From sequence record OM272052.1: 43,466 bases of DNA; one strand, given 5' to 3'. Of the stretch, positions 3,347 through 25,259 are shown one piece after another (the stretch's first letter is position 1; the number at the start of each line of letters is the position of its first letter). Source of the DNA: Escherichia phage fBC-Eco01. The notes under the pieces are model-generated. The model saw only the letters and a list, made by a program, of their open reading frames with translations. It ran no database searches and was not told where the DNA came from. The translations under genes and the position numbers were made by a program.

Positions 3347-3376
3347 AGGCCCCACTACGGGGCCTTAGTTTTATTT
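3347..3376. terminator. bidirectional intrinsic terminator
   Basis: GGCCCC-ACTAC-GGGGCC hairpin flanked by A-run upstream and T-run downstream; lies between convergent portal and antisense gene. Confidence 0.6.
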
Positions 3377-3892
3377 AAATCTTGCAGGCATTAACACCAT
3401 AAAGGCCGTGTTTGAAAATTGTATTTTGCATCCTCTGGTTTGGTCCTGGAAATCGAAACGAGCAATTTCATTTTTGTATGCCTTAGAAATCTTGTACGCG
3501 TCTGCCAAATAGCGCAGAGTGAACCCTATACTATCGACAACACCCGGTGTGATGTGCGCCACGCGTCTCCAGTCAGGAAAGTTTCCTTCTACAACATCTA
3601 CCGGAAGTGTACATATAAGCGCACGATTATCGTCATAGAAAGATACACTGCCGTTGTCGTGGTTTACCTCCGCGTAGTTAAATTTAGAAGGCTCTCTCCC
3701 TTTGATGTCTATGAGAGTCCCTTTCTCAACGTTGGTCTTCACATTGTCGCAGAACAATCTATGACCGTCCGTAGACACTATCAATCCTTCAGGGTCTATG
3801 TAAAAAGCGTTCAAATAGTAGCGAACATCATTTTTAGCCCTGCATATTTTCGCCCCTACATACGCAGGGAAAGTAATTACTGTAGTAACCAT
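3371..3892 (-). CDS. hypothetical protein (antisense accessory gene, moron)
   Basis: 173 aa ORF on opposite strand to flanking head genes; RBS AGGAGA 6 nt upstream of ATG; own promoter copy and terminator; no family recognised. Confidence 0.6.
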   Translation of the reverse strand: MVTTVITFPAYVGAKICRAKNDVRYYLNAFYIDPEGLIVSTDGHRLFCDNVKTNVEKGTLIDIKGREPSKFNYAEVNHDNGSVSFYDDNRALICTLPVDVVEGNFPDWRRVAHITPGVVDSIGFTLRYLADAYKISKAYKNEIARFDFQDQTRGCKIQFSNTAFMVLMPARFK

Positions 3893-5593: not shown

Positions 5594-5938
5594 TCATTTG
5601 CATTTCTCGTCGTATGTTTGTTGTAACTGCGACAGACGATTACCGGCTGTCATCTCGTCCATAGAAGGCCCAGCGCCTGTGTCCATAAAGAACAGCGGAA
5701 CAAACAGGAATGCGCCTGTAACACCGAGTACAACGTTAGTACCTATTTGCTTATTAACACGGTGCGTAGCGTTGGCTTGAGCTTGTTTTGTCGTGGCGAT
5801 TCTCGATAGTAACTGATTACATGTTGCCGTTGTATCCCCTGCCTGATAAACCTGTAAAGCTGGGTCTGGCAACGACCTTACGCAACCACTCAAACAAACG
5901 GCTACAACACCTGCTACTGCTAATTTAATATATTTCAT
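5594..5938 (-). CDS. putative lipoprotein (accessory)
   Basis: 114 aa; N-terminal signal with lipobox LSGC (MKYIKLAVAGVVAVCLSGC); hydrophobic segment near C-terminus; antisense to head genes. Confidence 0.6.
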   Translation of the reverse strand: MKYIKLAVAGVVAVCLSGCVRSLPDPALQVYQAGDTTATCNQLLSRIATTKQAQANATHRVNKQIGTNVVLGVTGAFLFVPLFFMDTGAGPSMDEMTAGNRLSQLQQTYDEKCK

Positions 5939-7692: not shown

Positions 7693-8742
7693 ATGGCAAT
7701 TACCACTATCGGCGATATCGTAACTGGCAACATCCCGGTCCTGGCGTCTTATATGACCGAGGACCCGGTAGAGAAAACCGCGTTCTTCCAGTCCGGTATT
7801 CTGACCCCGACTCCGTACGCCGCAGAGATTGCTCGCGGCCCATCCAACGTCGCCAACATTCCTTTCTGGAAAGCGATTGATACCTCTATCGAGCCTAATT
7901 ACTCGAACGATGTGTATCAGGACATCGCTACCCCGCGTAACGTCCAAACCGGCGAAATGATGGCCCGTGTTGCCTACCTGAACGAAGGTTTTGGTCAGGC
8001 GGATTTGACTGTTGAACTGACCAGCCAGAATCCGCTGCAATCAGTGGCTTCTCGTCTTGATAACTTCTGGCAGCGTCAGGCGCAACGCCGTCTGATTGCT
8101 ACCGCTCTCGGTCTGTACAACGACAACGTAACTGCTACCGATGCTTACCATACGCAGAACGACATGGTTATCGACGTGTCTGCTACTCTAGGCTTCGACG
8201 CAGGTGCGTTCATCGACGCCACCCAGACTATGGGCGATGCTCTGATGGGCAACGGTGGTGAAGTGCTGGGCGCTATCGCGATGCACAGCTTCGTTTATGC
8301 GCAGGCGCGTAAGCAGCAGCTTATCGACTTTATCAAAGATGCTGACAACGACACCTTGTTCGCCACCTACCAGGGATACCGCGTGATTGTTGACGACAGC
8401 ATGACCGTAGTCGGTACTGGTAGTGACCGTAAGTTCATCTCTATCATCTTCGGCAACGGTGCTATCGGTTATGGTGAAGGCAACCCGTCCAACCCGCTGG
8501 AATATGAACGCGAAGCGTCTCGCGGTAACGGTGGTGGCGTTGAAACCCTGTGGTCCCGTAAGACCTGGTTGCTGCACCCGCTGGGCTACAGCTTCACCAG
8601 CGCAGTAATCACCGGTAACGGCACCGAGACTATCGCCCGCTCTGCTTCCTGGCAGGACCTGGCGAACGCCTCCAACTGGAACCGTGTTGTTGACCGTAAG
8701 CATGTACCTATTGCCTTCCTGGTAACTGGCGTCGGTGCTTAA
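7693..8742 (+). CDS. major capsid protein
   Basis: 349 aa ORF following scaffold, tight spacing (TAATAATG), followed by strong terminator; size and position typical. Confidence 0.8.
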   Translation: MAITTIGDIVTGNIPVLASYMTEDPVEKTAFFQSGILTPTPYAAEIARGPSNVANIPFWKAIDTSIEPNYSNDVYQDIATPRNVQTGEMMARVAYLNEGFGQADLTVELTSQNPLQSVASRLDNFWQRQAQRRLIATALGLYNDNVTATDAYHTQNDMVIDVSATLGFDAGAFIDATQTMGDALMGNGGEVLGAIAMHSFVYAQARKQQLIDFIKDADNDTLFATYQGYRVIVDDSMTVVGTGSDRKFISIIFGNGAIGYGEGNPSNPLEYEREASRGNGGGVETLWSRKTWLLHPLGYSFTSAVITGNGTETIARSASWQDLANASNWNRVVDRKHVPIAFLVTGVGA

Positions 8743-9377: not shown

Positions 9378-9557
9378 ATGGCAGATAATTACGTAATCCG
9401 CGAAAAGTACACCCACGTTGATATTGTTGACGGTCAGGTAATGCCGGTTCGCGGTGTTGTAGAAGCGGATGAACTGGTTGCGACTCAACCGGACAACGAA
9501 GAAGCGCACAACAACGGCGGTGGTACTAAGCGTCGTCGCCGTAAGTCAGAGGGATAA
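9378..9557 (+). CDS. hypothetical small protein (59 aa)
   Basis: ATG with RBS AAGGAAAGG; basic C-terminus KRRRRK; below the 60-aa ORF-track cut-off. Confidence 0.4.
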   Translation: MADNYVIREKYTHVDIVDGQVMPVRGVVEADELVATQPDNEEAHNNGGGTKRRRRKSEG

Positions 9558-9560
9558 TTT

Positions 9561-10073
9561 ATGCCGCTAATCGTGGAAACTGGGGTGATCGTCCCAAATG
9601 CCGACAGTTACATTAGTCTGGCTGACGCCCGCGCGTTAGCGGCTAATTATGGCCTTGAGCTGCCGGAAGACGATACCGCAGCAGAGGTGGCCTTACGCAA
9701 CGGTGCTACTTATGTAGGGCTTGCAGAACCGCAGATGTGCGGTCGTCGAGTATCCGCCGAACAGTCTCTTGCATACCCCCGCACCGGCGTTACGTTAAAC
9801 GGGTTCCCGGTGGCCAACAACGCCATTCCGAAACAGGTGATTCTTGCGCAGGTAATCGCTGCCGCTACATATGGCGAGGGCACCGAAGTCCGGGCTAACT
9901 CAGACGGCCGCGCCGTGCAGACTGAGCGTGTCGAGGGTGCGGTAACAGTGACCTACTTCAACAATGGCAACAGTGGCGCTACGACCGCGATTACCGCTGC
10001 TGACGACGCTTTACGCCCGTTATTGTGTGGTGGTCTTAACAATGGTTTCTCGTTTAACGTGTACCGGGGTTAA
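9561..10073 (+). CDS. head-tail connector / adaptor protein (gp6-like, putative)
   Basis: 170 aa; position after capsid genes; N-terminal segment resembling head-tail adaptor proteins. Confidence 0.5.
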   Translation: MPLIVETGVIVPNADSYISLADARALAANYGLELPEDDTAAEVALRNGATYVGLAEPQMCGRRVSAEQSLAYPRTGVTLNGFPVANNAIPKQVILAQVIAAATYGEGTEVRANSDGRAVQTERVEGAVTVTYFNNGNSGATTAITAADDALRPLLCGGLNNGFSFNVYRG

Positions 10074-10075
10074 AA

Positions 10076-10690
10076 ATGGCGAAGACTAAATCAGAGATAT
10101 TCACGCTAATCGGTTCCGAGCTACCGGACAACACGACCGGACTTATTACGCCTGCGAAGTTACGCATGGTGCTAACACAGATGGCGGACTCACCTATTTA
10201 CGCCACTCCCGGTGTTAAAGAGGTTGAAGTTCTCCGCGCTGCGTCGACAGTAGCGCAAGCGCCTACCGCAGTAGATACGGCGTTGCAGGTATCGTTCGGC
10301 TCTGCTCAGGGTAGTGCATCTGACCCGGTAATGATTAATGCTGCGGGGCTGGTTACGTTCAACACCGCGGGTAACTACGCCGTTCGCATCAAGTTACAGG
10401 CAGGCCGCACTGGTGCTAGCGGAACCTCTATCTTGCTATCGCGCATTCTGGTTAATGGCGCACAATACGGCTCGCCAGCCGCTACGAAACTGGTAAGCGC
10501 GGATACTACAATTCCTATTGAGTCTCGTGTTGCTATTAACCCGACCGCAGGCCAGACGTTTGCCGTTCAGATTATACGGGATAGCGCCGGGAGTAACTTC
10601 GGCGGCGTATACCCACAAGCCGCTACCGTAACTGCATGGGGTACAGCGCCGTCCGCGCTATTGGTTATTTCGAGACTGGAGGCCGCCTGA
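10076..10690 (+). CDS. hypothetical structural protein
   Basis: 204 aa ORF in structural block, tightly packed with neighbours. Confidence 0.55.
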   Translation: MAKTKSEIFTLIGSELPDNTTGLITPAKLRMVLTQMADSPIYATPGVKEVEVLRAASTVAQAPTAVDTALQVSFGSAQGSASDPVMINAAGLVTFNTAGNYAVRIKLQAGRTGASGTSILLSRILVNGAQYGSPAATKLVSADTTIPIESRVAINPTAGQTFAVQIIRDSAGSNFGGVYPQAATVTAWGTAPSALLVISRLEAA

Positions 10691-10784
10691 TGAATAAGTT
10701 CACATGTGGTGTAGTTTTTGGTTTTCTTACCGCGGTAGCCTTGCACAGTTACGGTGTTCTTTTGACGCTGCAAGAGGTGCTAAA

Positions 10785-11144
10785 ATGAACACCGCTTTCA
10801 GTAAACGTATGCAAGGCGTCGGTACACGCCTGCTAACCAAATTCGGTAGCACGGTATCTCTTGTTCGCGCTGGCTCGAAAGTGTGGGATGAAGTTCTCGG
10901 TGAGTATGTCCGGTCCGCGGATGAAGTGCTGCCGTTGAAAGCTGTTCCGGTTCCTGTTAACGCAGGACTGGTGAACGGTACGACGATTCAGGCGGGCGAC
11001 ATGATTGCTAAAGCGGATTGCAGTGTCGTCCCGAAAATGGAAGACAAGGTGCAATTCGGCGGCGAGCAATGGTCTGTCGTAGCTATCGAGAAGAAGATGG
11101 TTAACAATGATGTCGTGGCCTACTTTATTCAGGTGAGAAAATGA
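10785..11144 (+). CDS. head-tail joining protein (putative)
   Basis: internal ATG 10785 with RBS AAGAGGTG chosen over the track start 10704; 119 aa. Confidence 0.5.
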   Translation: MNTAFSKRMQGVGTRLLTKFGSTVSLVRAGSKVWDEVLGEYVRSADEVLPLKAVPVPVNAGLVNGTTIQAGDMIAKADCSVVPKMEDKVQFGGEQWSVVAIEKKMVNNDVVAYFIQVRK

Positions 11145-11536
11145 GTTTCGCGCTTGATGTCTCTAAGTTCGTGGAAAAGGCGAAGAAGAATCCTGAGAAG
11201 GTGATGCGTCAGGTGTCTATCAAGCTGTTTTCCGCTATCATAAAGGCTAGTCCAGTGGACACCGGCCGCTTTCGTATGAACTGGATGGCGTCTGGTGGTA
11301 CTTCTGCTTCCGGGATTACGGACGCCACCGATAAATCAGGAAACACGGCAACCGGAAACGCTACAAGTTTCGTACTGAAAGCCGCAGACTGGCACGAGTT
11401 CACGCTGACAAATAATCTGCCGTATGCACAACGGCTGGAGTATGGCTGGTCGCAGCAAGCGCCACAAGGATTTGTCCGGGTGAATGTGTCCCGCTTCCAG
11501 CAACTCATTAACGAAGAAGCCAACAAGGTGAAATGA
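11141..11536 (+). CDS. tail completion protein (HK97 gp10-like)
   Basis: 131 aa; motif PVDTGRFRMNW resembling the HK97 gp10 family DTGxLRxS signature; ATGA overlap with upstream gene. Confidence 0.55.
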   Translation: MSFALDVSKFVEKAKKNPEKVMRQVSIKLFSAIIKASPVDTGRFRMNWMASGGTSASGITDATDKSGNTATGNATSFVLKAADWHEFTLTNNLPYAQRLEYGWSQQAPQGFVRVNVSRFQQLINEEANKVK

Positions 11537-11949
11537 TGGGCTACTTTGAGGACTTAACCAAAGCATTTGATGTGCCGCTGGTAGCCTTCGGAACAACCAA
11601 CGGCATCAAGGTCTCGCTTGAAAACATCGACGCGCCGACGTCAACCGATACGCCGTATCTGGCAAGTTACATGTTACTTGCGGATACAGAACAGGCAGAT
11701 TTGTTCTTCACAGAACAACGCTCAGGTGTTTATCAGGTCGACATTAACTACGCATCGGTGAAAGGTAGCGCGCCAATCAATAAAATGGCAGACTTACTTA
11801 ACACGGCGTTTAAAGCAGGTAAGTCATTTTCGCGTAACGACATCTGCGCCGAGGTTCAATCGGTTAGCCTGGGGCCGCTGATTGTAGAAAACGGATGGGC
11901 CAAACGACCATTGTCAATTAACTTTATTGCATTCACCAAGAGGCTGTGA
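11533..11949 (+). CDS. tail terminator-like protein (putative)
   Basis: 138 aa, overlaps neighbours by 4 nt, directly precedes major tail protein. Confidence 0.45.
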   Translation: MMGYFEDLTKAFDVPLVAFGTTNGIKVSLENIDAPTSTDTPYLASYMLLADTEQADLFFTEQRSGVYQVDINYASVKGSAPINKMADLLNTAFKAGKSFSRNDICAEVQSVSLGPLIVENGWAKRPLSINFIAFTKRL

Positions 11950-11951
11950 AT

Positions 11952-13118
11952 ATGGCTACAACTCCTTTTAAGGGCGCGAATACCGCGCAATTCTATGTGG
12001 CGGAAGTGACCCCTGGCGTAACACCGACTAACCCGGTCTGGTCGCCGTTGCGTAACACTGGCGGTGTTCCCGCGGTAACCCGCGATGCGCTGACTTCCAA
12101 CGAACTCGACGGCAGCAGAGAAACCACATCCATCCGCACCGGTAACAAACAGGTTAGCGGGGAGTACGCCATCGAACTTAGCTCACGTAGCCAGGATGAT
12201 TTCCTTGCGGGTGCTATGACTTCTACGTGGCAGGACGGGGTAGAGATTACGGGTGCTGAAATTACGGTCGCTCCAGCAGGTAAAACATTCACCCGCGCTG
12301 CCGGTAGCTTCATTACTGACGGTGTAGAGGTTGGCGACCTGATTGCATTCACCGACTTAACCGGCGACAACGCAAAACCGTTTATCGTGACCGCGGTCGA
12401 GGCGCTCGTAGTAACAGGCGCAGGCATTCAGCACACGCTGACAGCAGAGACAAAAACCAGTAAGGCTAAGACCGGGGATAAACTGGAAACCGGTAACGCA
12501 TGTAAGACGTTCTCTATCCTGACATGGTTCAAAGGACAGTGCGGGAACCCTGACGCGTACATGTTGACCAAAGGCGTGGAAATCTCCGGTTTTACTATCG
12601 AGCAGGCCGTGAACGCGATGGTGACAGGCAGCTTCCCGTTCATCGGTCTGAGTCAGGAAATTCTTACCGCGCCGCCAGCAGGTTCCGACTTCTCCCAGGT
12701 TACGTTCACCGATGAGCCGTTCTCGTCTGTAGATGTGTCTGTGTTCGACGGCTCTACTCCGTTGCGTTGCGATACTCTTACCATCACCAACGACAACGGC
12801 GCATCCGCTCAGTTTGAACTAGGGAACAGTAGCGTTGCGTTCGTGGAACGTGGTCGCGCAGCTAACACCTTCTCCATCTCTGGGAAGCTGTACGACATGG
12901 CGATGATTCAGAAGTTTATCAACGAGCAGCAGGTAGAGATTAACTCTATTCTGGCGGGGGTGAACGGGGCTATGTCTTTCAGTTTGAAACGCGCAGAACT
13001 TACGGCTGTTACGCCAGAAATATCTGGCCCGGAATCAATTACGCAAAGCATAGAAGGACAGTCCACAGGCAATCAATATCAATCTTCTATTGTTATCCAG
13101 CGTATCACCTACGCATAA
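11952..13118 (+). CDS. major tail protein (putative)
   Basis: ATG 11952 with RBS AAGAGG at 8 nt; 389 aa; last gene before terminator and tail chaperone/tape measure genes. Confidence 0.55.
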   Translation: MATTPFKGANTAQFYVAEVTPGVTPTNPVWSPLRNTGGVPAVTRDALTSNELDGSRETTSIRTGNKQVSGEYAIELSSRSQDDFLAGAMTSTWQDGVEITGAEITVAPAGKTFTRAAGSFITDGVEVGDLIAFTDLTGDNAKPFIVTAVEALVVTGAGIQHTLTAETKTSKAKTGDKLETGNACKTFSILTWFKGQCGNPDAYMLTKGVEISGFTIEQAVNAMVTGSFPFIGLSQEILTAPPAGSDFSQVTFTDEPFSSVDVSVFDGSTPLRCDTLTITNDNGASAQFELGNSSVAFVERGRAANTFSISGKLYDMAMIQKFINEQQVEINSILAGVNGAMSFSLKRAELTAVTPEISGPESITQSIEGQSTGNQYQSSIVIQRITYA

Positions 13119-23234: not shown

Positions 23235-25259
23235 ATGTCAAGCGGATGCGGTGACGTTTTAAGCCTGGCGGATTTACAAACCGCCAAAAAACACCAGATT
23301 TTCGAGGCTGAGGTTATCACCGGTAAATCTGGTGGCGTTGCAGGTGGTGCAGATATCGACTATGCCACTAACCCGAACACCGGCCAAGTTCAAAAAACTA
23401 TGCCAGCCATTCTGCGCGATATTGGGTTCGAACCAGCGTCTTTTGATTTTACATCTGGCGGTACTCTTACCCCGAACGACCGTAACAAGGCGGTTTTATG
23501 GCCTATGGCGGATGGTGGTGATGGCGACTGGTATTACTGGGAGGGCACGCTGCCGAAGGTCATACCAGCCGCGTCTTCACCGTTAACGGCTGGAGGTATT
23601 GCCGAGGGGGCATGGCGGCCTGTGGGGGATATCACGCTGCGCGAAGAGCTTCTTGAGTCTGTTTTGGTTATGAATGGTGCTCGATTTGCCCTTCGAGACA
23701 TTCATTCTGCGCTTGATTTTGCGGGTGTAGTTGCTGATGGCGTGACTGATGTGACTACCGCACTGCAAGCGGGCATCGATTCCCTGCCCGCCGGTAGCGC
23801 TCTGCTGTTTACAGGCGGGACATTCCTGTTCGATAAGGTCACGATTAGCAAGCCACTCACTGTAACCGGCGACGCAGAGATGGTTCACAATGGGTTTCGA
23901 ATTAAAACCAGTAACTTCACATCCACCCTGCTTGGCAAGCAGCAAAGTCGAACCTACGGCAGCCAATCACGTTGTTTTGAAATACGTGCGTATGAAGATG
24001 CTGCTGATTACGAAAACATCAAGATCCTGTTCAACGACATGGCGGGGTTCTTCTATTCGACTGATTTTCGCGGTCGTGAATATTCAGCCGCACCAAACGA
24101 CCCCGCCAACAGAGTGGTAAAAAATACGCTGATTATGGGTTGCACCTCAACGGCCCCCGCCGGTCAGGCTGCTGGTAACTACCAGCACATAGGCATAACT
24201 AACGCCAAGTGCATAGGTAACTCAGCCTATAACGGAGTAAACGCCTCAAGCTACAACTTTATAAACGGCAACGGGTATCTGATAGTTACCGGGAATTATG
24301 ACGACAACAACACCTACGGTTCGCTTGAGATAGAAAACAACCTAGTTTCTCATGCGACGATCTCAGGCAACACATTCAAAAAGCAGTTGTGGGTAGACGA
24401 TACAAGCAACGTCTCCATCGTCGGAAATACCGTGTCAGACAGGATTTTCCTTACTGCGCAGAGTAATGATACCGATAACATTACTGTGTCGGGGAATACC
24501 TGCACGAGGCTGTCAGCCACCACATTTGGACCGATTGAGGAGCAAATAGGGAGGCATAAAGGGATTCATGTCATTGGTAATACGTTCTATGGTGAGGCGG
24601 GGGTTAATGATATCTTTGCCGATGGTCACGTTGATTGCATCACTATTGAATCCAATGCATTGAATGGGGTCGATAGTAACGCCATCGCATTGGTGCGCAG
24701 CCCAACATGTAACCACATGGTGCGTAATAACCGCAGTAAAGTGACTCGCGCCTTGGCAATCTCCGGGTCTGGTGGCCGGGTTGTTGAGTATGGCAACGAC
24801 AATATAACCCTTTCTGGTACGTCCGAAAGTCATCACATCTCAAACCTCATGCAGCCAAGTTTAGATTTTCTTGACCTGCCTGGGCGTTACCTGCACAGCA
24901 CTAAGTACACGGGGTCTATCGCGCCGCTCGGCTCTGCCTCCCTATCCCTGCCAATCCCAGATAGTGCTGGGCTGGCATTCAGGGGGGTGTCACTGTGGGT
25001 GATGATAAGGGATGCCGTGACCAATAATATATCTATCTACAGAATTGATGGTGTATACAAAGCCGTTGGGGCTTCGATACAGCTGTCTTTTAGTACGCCC
25101 TATTCGGCATTTGGTGTCGACACTGCATCGATTAATGTTGCTAATAACGCTAGCACATCGAATAGCATCAATATCCTTGTGTCTAACACTCATGTGACGA
25201 AAATATTACAGGTTACTGTTATGCCTGAAGTGACAAGCAAACTTGGGACTGAGGAGTAA
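23235..25259 (+). CDS. tail fibre / tailspike protein with parallel beta-helix-like repeats
   Basis: 674 aa, RBS AAAGAGGA; recurring xGNT/xGNx repeats (ISGNTFKK, VGNTVSD, VSGNTCTRL, VIGNTFYGE) typical of pectin-lyase-fold tailspikes. Confidence 0.6.
   Translation: MSSGCGDVLSLADLQTAKKHQIFEAEVITGKSGGVAGGADIDYATNPNTGQVQKTMPAILRDIGFEPASFDFTSGGTLTPNDRNKAVLWPMADGGDGDWYYWEGTLPKVIPAASSPLTAGGIAEGAWRPVGDITLREELLESVLVMNGARFALRDIHSALDFAGVVADGVTDVTTALQAGIDSLPAGSALLFTGGTFLFDKVTISKPLTVTGDAEMVHNGFRIKTSNFTSTLLGKQQSRTYGSQSRCFEIRAYEDAADYENIKILFNDMAGFFYSTDFRGREYSAAPNDPANRVVKNTLIMGCTSTAPAGQAAGNYQHIGITNAKCIGNSAYNGVNASSYNFINGNGYLIVTGNYDDNNTYGSLEIENNLVSHATISGNTFKKQLWVDDTSNVSIVGNTVSDRIFLTAQSNDTDNITVSGNTCTRLSATTFGPIEEQIGRHKGIHVIGNTFYGEAGVNDIFADGHVDCITIESNALNGVDSNAIALVRSPTCNHMVRNNRSKVTRALAISGSGGRVVEYGNDNITLSGTSESHHISNLMQPSLDFLDLPGRYLHSTKYTGSIAPLGSASLSLPIPDSAGLAFRGVSLWVMIRDAVTNNISIYRIDGVYKAVGASIQLSFSTPYSAFGVDTASINVANNASTSNSINILVSNTHVTKILQVTVMPEVTSKLGTEE

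Follow-up and report, generated by a model that had tools for sequence, protein, structure and literature searches.

Organization of the Locus

The DNA analyzed here is a 43,466-nt stretch of Escherichia phage fBC-Eco01 (sequence record OM272052.1; "the window" below), a Kagunavirus of the K1G-like E. coli siphophages (Guernseyvirinae). Its region 9500-12000 is matched by 393 phage records, the best of which are E. coli Kagunavirus genomes with 88-98% identity; phage TPH05A is 98% identical to the window over this region. An ORF of 32 sense codons (ATG at 10690-10692, TGA at 10786-10788; product MNKFTCGVVFGFLTAVALHSYGVLLTLQEVLK) is found in the head-neck module between the gene for phrog_3614 and the gene for the head-closure protein Hc1 (Table 1). 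The original prediction, made from the sequence without database searches, had pointed to a hydrophobic 32-codon ORF at this position, and the sequence, the ORF list and hydropathy bear it out. It had also described an ATGA overlap at both ends of the frame, which holds for the 3' end only: the ATG of Hc1 at 10785 overlaps the TGA of the peptide gene by 4 nt (ATGA), whereas the TGA of phrog_3614 (10688-10690) and the peptide ATG form TGATG with a single base (A) in common, and the ATGA string at 10690-10693 is not a stop/start overlap.

The ORF was further said to lie between two structural genes. This is correct for Hc1 on the downstream side, but the upstream phrog_3614 has no assigned structural role and tolerates a large deletion in a relative; a PDB sequence relative of its protein was not found. 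In the isolated phage K1H the phrog_3614 protein is 75 aa instead of 204 aa owing to an in-frame internal deletion of 129 aa (L018 1179-1406), and most of this "structural-module" protein seems dispensable, judging from the K1H deletion. The peptide ORF is labeled "hypothetical protein" in many records and was left unannotated in the original K1G record; the GenBank record of fBC-Eco01, the single source for the name, calls the product DUF3042.

Table 1. Coordinates of the peptide gene, its translation signals and the neighboring head-neck genes in the window.
Feature	Coordinates	Strand	Basis
Accessory mini-gene, predicted single-pass membrane peptide, 32 aa	10690..10788 (stop included)	+	sequence, homologues, selection, helix prediction, hydropathy
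Presence/absence segment, 95 nt	10694..10788	+	alignment and junction survey
Shine-Dalgarno GGAGG, 7 nt before peptide ATG	10678..10682	+	sequence
Shine-Dalgarno GAGGTG for Hc1, 5 nt before ATG 10785	10774..10779	+	sequence
Upstream gene phrog_3614, 204 aa, head-neck module	10076..10690	+	PHROG/Pfam scans
Downstream gene, head-closure protein Hc1, 119 aa, phrog_161 / phrog_17193	10785..11144	+	PHROG/Pfam scans
Major head protein	7693-8742		PHROG/Pfam scans and TPH05A annotation
Head-tail adaptor Ad1	9561-10073		PHROG/Pfam scans and TPH05A annotation
Tail-completion/Neck1	11141-11536		PHROG/Pfam scans and TPH05A annotation
Tail terminator	11533-11949		PHROG/Pfam scans and TPH05A annotation
Tail tube	11946-13118		PHROG/Pfam scans and TPH05A annotation

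A Variable Slot Between phrog_3614 and Hc1

About three quarters of Kagunaviruses lack exactly the 95-nt segment listed in Table 1, and their flanking genes overlap directly as CTGATGAGCACC; SHAK7858 and Schulenburg are examples of such an empty slot. When region 9500-12000 was compared with phage records, many of the matches fell into two segments between which about 95 nt were absent. The segment is bounded by a 4-nt direct repeat, ATGA (10690-10693 and 10785-10788), and owing to this repeat its boundaries are ambiguous, 10690-10784 being equally possible. Removal of the segment from the window gives the empty-slot junction CTGATGA(G/A)CACC found in most Kagunaviruses, and the N-terminus of Hc1 in the window (MNTAFSKR...) is the same as in relatives without the insert.

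The content of the slot was surveyed in 42 IMG/VR loci anchored on Hc1. The 32-aa ORF occupies nine of them, with one fused variant in addition; a 37-aa basic ORF and a 113-aa Cys-rich ORF (phrog_11861) were each found at two loci, one of the latter in a distant relative, and most of the remaining loci are empty. In GenBank, the 99-nt ORF is present in 28 records, or about a quarter of the Kagunavirus records; TPH05A has the same 32-aa ORF in its slot. An unrelated 43-aa hydrophobic ORF fills the slot of UTEC10, and this cassette occurs in eight GenBank records with positions and annotations that match the neck region, the junction itself having been inspected only in UTEC10. The 113-aa cassette phrog_11861 is present in 38 records of very different phages, among them Klebsiella, Salmonella Sashavirus, and Pseudomonas and Erwinia jumbo phages, and Raoultella phage RP180 carries it in this same slot. 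We concluded that the phrog_3614/Hc1 junction is, on the evidence of these loci, a hot spot at which different accessory mini-genes alternate, and that the 32-codon ORF is very probably a dispensable gene, one of four or more unrelated cassettes found there.

The frame had been called conserved-looking, a description that is apt insofar as the frame is intact wherever the ORF is present but that overlooks the absence of the whole ORF from most close relatives. Its optional nature (absence from about three quarters of close relatives, others of which hold unrelated cassettes) was not foreseen. The suggested comparison of the frame among relatives revealed no disruption, with the exception of one metagenomic contig of 5.6 kb (IMG/VR 3300007747_000049, L025 842-1504) in which phrog_3614 is fused in frame to the 32-aa peptide. 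This fusion arises by a 50-nt deletion that takes the last 17 codons of phrog_3614, and it may represent either natural variation or a misassembly.

A second junction of the same late operon, between a 58-aa phrog_4451-like gene and the adaptor gene Ad1, also differs among relatives. Two loci (L186 and L188, 1606-1872) have an 88-aa gene with a Pfam Tad2-like match (PF11195, anti-Thoeris family) at this junction, and the related locus L187 has an unrelated 50-aa gene. The window has no insert there; positions 9557 and 9561 abut.

Translational Coupling and Expression Signals

No sigma-70-like promoter was detected within or beside the ORF, and matches to promoters and terminators beside it were not above chance frequency; the sole terminator-like match nearby (10645-10659), likewise of chance-level frequency, falls inside the upstream gene. 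Lacking transcription signals of its own, the cassette would be transcribed as part of the late head-neck mRNA, and we infer late expression of the peptide gene from this operon position.

Two Shine-Dalgarno (SD) sequences bracket the ORF. In relatives without the cassette the equivalent of the GGAGG serves the head-closure gene, and the GAGGTG that precedes Hc1 in the window lies within the last five codons of the peptide (Q-E-V-L-K). The same 3' module, CAAGAGGTnnTAAAATGA, is also present in two contigs related to Enterobacter phage EC151 (L050 and L189). This combination of SD and ATGA is found where a gene follows and is missing where none follows (Salmonella phage L005), and each slot cassette opens at the resident ATG and closes with SD-spacer-ATGA. 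Taken together, these signals suggest that the mini-gene is translationally coupled at both ends: it would appropriate the GGAGG and the start position that the head-closure gene uses in empty-slot phages, its final five codons would supply the replacement SD for Hc1, and its stop codon would be coupled to the Hc1 start through the ATGA. Because of this SD hand-over and the ATGA overlap, the insertion should leave expression of the essential downstream gene undisturbed. The locus also illustrates how an insertion can fit inside an essential late operon, by taking the resident ribosome-binding site and carrying a replacement in its own last codons.

Homologues of the Peptide

Homologues of 32 codons with the same 1-nt and 4-nt overlaps occupy the same slot in L049, L186-L188 and L069, so that the peptide is found in this slot in three deep lineages: that of the window, the P0001/P0024 lineage (L186), and L069, which came from a metagenome scan. 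Two relatives came from an exhaustive HMMER search against 1.84 billion representatives. One, of the P0001/P0024 lineage, occupies this slot in a diverged phage; the other, of 35 aa, is on a contig related to phage EC151, where it comes after a phrog_323-like gene. In the EC151-like contigs (L050 3489-3575, L189 7105-7191) a second, unrelated hydrophobic ORF of 28 aa (MKDFNFGHVVIILMGLFVLFLVSIGAMK) directly follows the homologue with an ATGA overlap and is itself ATGA-coupled to the next gene.

By tblastn, 32-aa homologues with 52-58% identity were identified in the Salmonella Guernseyvirinae vB_SenTO17 and VSiA, placed between a phrog_268 NinH-like gene and the small terminase gene. On the 3' side of the Salmonella homologue there is no coupled gene but a GC-rich hairpin followed by a T-run, which we read as a putative terminator. 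At the position where the Salmonella relatives hold the 32-aa peptide (L005 3001-3099), TPH05A has an unrelated 33-aa ORF, phrog_32259 (L070 668-769, minus strand); this position, too, may be a variable slot.

Purifying Selection on the Reading Frame

The peptide shows 66% amino acid identity across the window, L186 and L069, versus 68-80% for the flanking proteins, and dS among the three is saturated in the peptide gene and in both flanks. The peptide appears to have diverged about in step with its flanks, which fits a long residence in the slot. In divergent pairs dN is 0.28-0.43 and dS at least 1.6, giving a dN/dS of about 0.1-0.2, and third codon positions change most (e.g., 9, 5 and 19 changes by codon position). 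Internally, the P0024 lineage has four synonymous changes and no non-synonymous one. Within Kagunavirus there are few substitutions, mostly non-synonymous, and selection is not demonstrable at this depth because dN is about equal to dS on four changes.

Frame +1 is the only frame open in all seven sequences compared. Six divergent members share ten invariant residues (N2, F4, G7, G11, F12, A15, V16, H19, S20, and L24), which are nearly unchanged among about 40 natural variants; the two commonest variants were seen on 380 and 74 contigs. We define the family here as MN[KR]FxxGxxxGFxxAVxxHSxxxL, 32-35 aa; the window peptide has all ten invariant residues.

An open frame of this length is common: when the 93 nt are shuffled the frame remains open in 15% of cases, and among the window's 93-nt frames 35% are open. 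By itself the open 32-codon frame is therefore unremarkable, and it is the comparative data that make it significant. Phage genes as small as this are often overlooked or discounted; in this case comparative data alone suffice to distinguish a genuine 32-codon gene from a frame open by chance.

The original prediction had left the choice between a genuine small membrane peptide and a coupling spacer, a non-functional frame that is open merely to bring ribosomes to the next start. The frequency of open frames by chance, the coupling signals at both ends, and the few, mostly non-synonymous changes within Kagunavirus are all compatible with a spacer. However, the slot is empty in most relatives, where the flanking genes are coupled directly with the same SD, and the flanking genes therefore need no spacer. 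Furthermore, the amino acid sequence with its ten invariant residues is kept though third positions are saturated, and the peptide is retained in the Salmonella phages in which a hairpin and T-run come next instead of a gene. We reject the spacer and regard a non-functional frame as very improbable.

Translation from the in-frame ATG at 10704 would give a 146-aa Hc1 with an N-terminal extension and make the 32-codon frame incidental. That longer ORF is open in the window and also in L018 and L025. Its ATG is not preceded by an SD, though, frame +3 of the insert has one to three stops in every family member (L049 and L069 included), all empty-slot phages start Hc1 at M(S/N)TAFSKR, and the pattern of divergence matches frame +1; an extended Hc1 is hardly credible.

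Instead of coding for a protein, the insert could function as an RNA or DNA element, for example a regulatory hairpin or a small RNA. Within lineages the 99 nt are indeed better conserved than the flanks, synonymous sites included. Between lineages, however, the peptide persists at its usual length although only 55-66% of the nucleotides are identical; the predicted fold is no better than that of shuffles (z = -1.0), and no Rfam match was obtained at E up to 1. We consider such an element extremely unlikely.

It is highly probable, in our judgment, that the ORF is a real accessory gene for a membrane peptide in a variable slot. The first option of the original prediction is supported by the three deep lineages, the two further genomic positions, the low dN/dS, and the single frame that is open throughout, as read from sequence comparison.

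Apparent Spread of the Cassette Between Phages

In neighbor-joining trees of both flanks, the phages with the 32-aa ORF form a polyphyletic set. The ORF keeps 96-100% identity between carriers that differ by 7-13% in their flanks, and in three contrasts of ORF with flank divergence the binomial P values were 4e-4, 4e-4 and 1e-5. Synonymous divergence of the ORF is lower than that of the flanks also within the P0024 lineage. Either recombination in the conserved flanks during co-infection or constraint on synonymous sites, partly from the coupling signals at the ends, may account for this pattern. The peptide gene may pass between phages by recombination. Its DNA had no blastn match in 5,426 complete E. 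coli genomes, and we therefore concluded that the ORF does not come from the host or a resident prophage.

Polyphyletic carriers, an ORF that stays nearly identical despite differing flanks, and a family that is present at three unrelated genomic positions could likewise be expected of a selfish or neutral mini-cassette that persists by costless recombinational spread between co-infecting phages and brings the phage no benefit. Such a cassette would not explain why the protein has stayed under purifying selection among deeply diverged phages that carry it in this slot. In addition, there is no mobility gene and no terminal repeat besides the 4-nt ATGA, and a beneficial accessory gene would spread equally well by recombination. 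We regard a purely selfish cassette as improbable.

With regard to known systems, the extra genes that Hendrix and colleagues reportedly found in lambdoid and HK97-like phages between genes adjacent in relatives, and named morons, are a close parallel. Classical morons come with a promoter and a terminator of their own, and expression from the prophage is frequent. The 32-aa gene resembles them in its location exactly between genes that abut in most relatives, and in being dispensable, patchy in distribution, and alternating with unrelated cassettes in the slot. It differs from them in having no promoter or terminator and in relying on translational coupling in a late operon. The phage group of the window is described as lytic.

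Predicted Membrane Helix and Family Searches

The peptide is hydrophobic, with a GRAVY of 1.04 and a best 19-residue Kyte-Doolittle mean of 1.79, and its hydropathy is in the top 2.5% among open 32-codon frames. AlphaFold2 predicted one helix over residues 3-31 (pLDDT 91). At the level of sequence, hydropathy and predicted helix agree with a putative bitopic peptide, for which a hydrophobic helix of about 20 residues would be expected. The peptide is most likely a single hydrophobic helix that would insert in the host inner membrane. Along this helix the invariant residues form two period-four stripes, G7-G11-A15-H19 and F12-V16-S20-L24, a pattern that was spotted post hoc; the helical moment at 100 degrees gave no significant sign of a conserved face (p = 0.25).

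Profile searches against Pfam, PHROGs, NCBIfam, PADLOC and the PDB gave nothing above threshold for the peptide. No PHROG or NCBIfam family reached significance, and no PADLOC match was obtained at E up to 1, PADLOC being a collection of defense systems and not of anti-defense proteins. In the literature on membrane or transmembrane proteins of Kagunavirus and Guernseyvirinae, no mention of the ORF was found. The N-terminus has a weak match to model positions 1-20 of 54 in Pfam DUF3042 (PF11240), and three of five peptide family members matched this model with E values of 0.02-0.17. We rejected membership, as the best score was 15.2 bits (E = 0.019) against a gathering cut-off of 25 and less than half of the model is covered. 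A lipobox protein (a spanin such as Rz1, or an exclusion factor of the Cor or Llp type) was rejected as well: its single Cys, residue 6, precedes the hydrophobic core, and this alignment column is not conserved (C/A/W/L/W/Y).

The glycophorin-A transmembrane packing motif of the GxxxG type is LIxxGVxxGVxxT. The peptide pattern G7xxxG11-F12xxA15-V16xxH19-S20 is similar to it in its pairs of small and bulky residues four apart and its polar end, a resemblance of pattern only. Small inner-membrane proteins of bacteria that bind larger ones include KdpF (29 aa), MgtS (31 aa), AcrZ (49 aa), MgrB (47 aa) and PmrR (29 aa). Like these, the peptide is of similar size, consists of a single hydrophobic helix, and has termini too short for an enzymatic domain; unlike these, it is phage-encoded, and it has no sequence relationship to them. 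Its conserved pattern of small residues along the helix suggests helix-helix binding, as in the bacterial proteins.

Proposed Function

We propose that the 32-residue peptide would be made but be non-essential, with its one helix set into the host inner membrane and G7xxxG11-F12xxA15-V16xxH19-S20xxxL24 forming its helix-helix packing face. Via this face it may bind itself or a larger membrane protein, in the manner of the small bacterial membrane proteins, and thereby modulate a host or phage membrane process that is relevant only in some hosts; counter-defense, exclusion of other phages, and lysis timing are candidate processes. The likely interpretation of the sequence data is that the peptide is accessory, spans the membrane once and would act through a helix face of the GxxxG kind, but for any particular target or role of the peptide our confidence is much lower than for the existence of the gene.

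As for partner genes, no segment strictly co-occurs with the ORF among IMG/VR genomes (9 carriers versus 23 non-carriers). A partial association (6 of 9 carriers versus 3 of 23 non-carriers) was noted for a tape-measure/chaperone allele at 15.5-17.5 kb and also for the ORF at 3371-3892, and is best explained by relatedness to the window. A link to K1-capsule hosts, suggested by the presence of the gene in phages K1G and K1H and in UTI89 phages, was dropped when K1 phage JSSK01 was found to align with a gap of about 95 nt typical of the empty slot.

A role in lysis deserves separate consideration, in which the helix would bind the phage holin or tune the timing of permeabilization, as an antiholin-like peptide or holin modulator. 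The peptide resembles type I toxins, holins and antiholins in being short, helical and hydrophobic, with a charged N-terminus and potential membrane activity, and GxxxG-like motifs serve in holin oligomerization. The position in the late head-neck operon would imply late expression; the copy in the Salmonella relatives belongs to a gene string that starts with two holins and a lysin, and in the EC151-like contig an HslV-like gene and an Rz-like spanin are found about 1.1-1.5 kb downstream of the copy. On the other hand, the peptide gene never adjoins a holin or endolysin gene, both of which are at the opposite genome end in the window and its close relative TPH05A, with the spanins 4 kb away, and no lysis-gene allele strictly co-occurs with it. 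The peptide is only half the size of the smallest holin, has no lipobox, and has its Cys6 too near the N-terminus for a signal peptide. Holins and antiholins are typically encoded beside the endolysin and have at least one transmembrane domain and a charged C-terminal tail. We rejected the holin/antiholin class on the basis of size (32 aa against the typical 60-150), the distant map position of the holins and endolysin in TPH05A, and the lack of any PHROG or Pfam holin match. Type I toxins differ in turn, as the peptide gene has no promoter of its own and shows no sign of an antisense RNA locus. Lysis modulation is the weaker alternative, ranking below an accessory peptide that binds by helix-helix contact, and we judge it unlikely.

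The accessory, helix-binding peptide can be placed in a more speculative setting. The head-neck junctions of Guernseyvirinae might be landing pads for host-interaction cassettes, a notion that derives from the four or more unrelated cassettes in the slot, the roaming of phrog_11861 among phage groups, the Tad2-like gene at the neighboring junction in some relatives, and the apparent recombinational spread. The peptide would then be a minimal counter-defense or superinfection-exclusion factor that disables an inner-membrane protein via its GxxxG-His/Ser face. We offer this reading tentatively and think it doubtful as a whole. Kagunaviruses are used in phage therapy collections. For them, a peptide that did target a host membrane protein would be a very compact tool, and it might also mark host-range or defense interactions. 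As matters stand, it is an ordinary accessory gene, and the most useful general points are the multi-cassette slot and the hand-over of the ribosome-binding site.

Other Small or Variable ORFs

Three further ORFs were noted in the course of the comparison. In TPH05A (L070 2563-2655, minus strand), a hydrophobic ORF of 30 aa, MTEIDFILLAIGAGAVVGAFWGCFDGLKGR, that overlaps the stop codon of the endolysin gene encodes a putative further tiny membrane peptide, in this case within the lysis cassette. A lipoprotein-type signal, MKYIKLAVAGVVAVCLSGC, is present in a 114-aa ORF on the opposite strand (5594-5938, minus strand) in the head module of the window. Nearly all of the 32 related IMG/VR genomes lack a match to this segment, which is therefore another variable accessory gene. 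Finally, region 23751-25250 (plus strand), the C-terminal part of a 674-aa ORF (23235-25259), had no blastn match in the 32 related IMG/VR Kagunavirus genomes. It corresponds to the position of the tailspike in TPH05A, and the difference is therefore probably due to a swap of the receptor-binding domain.
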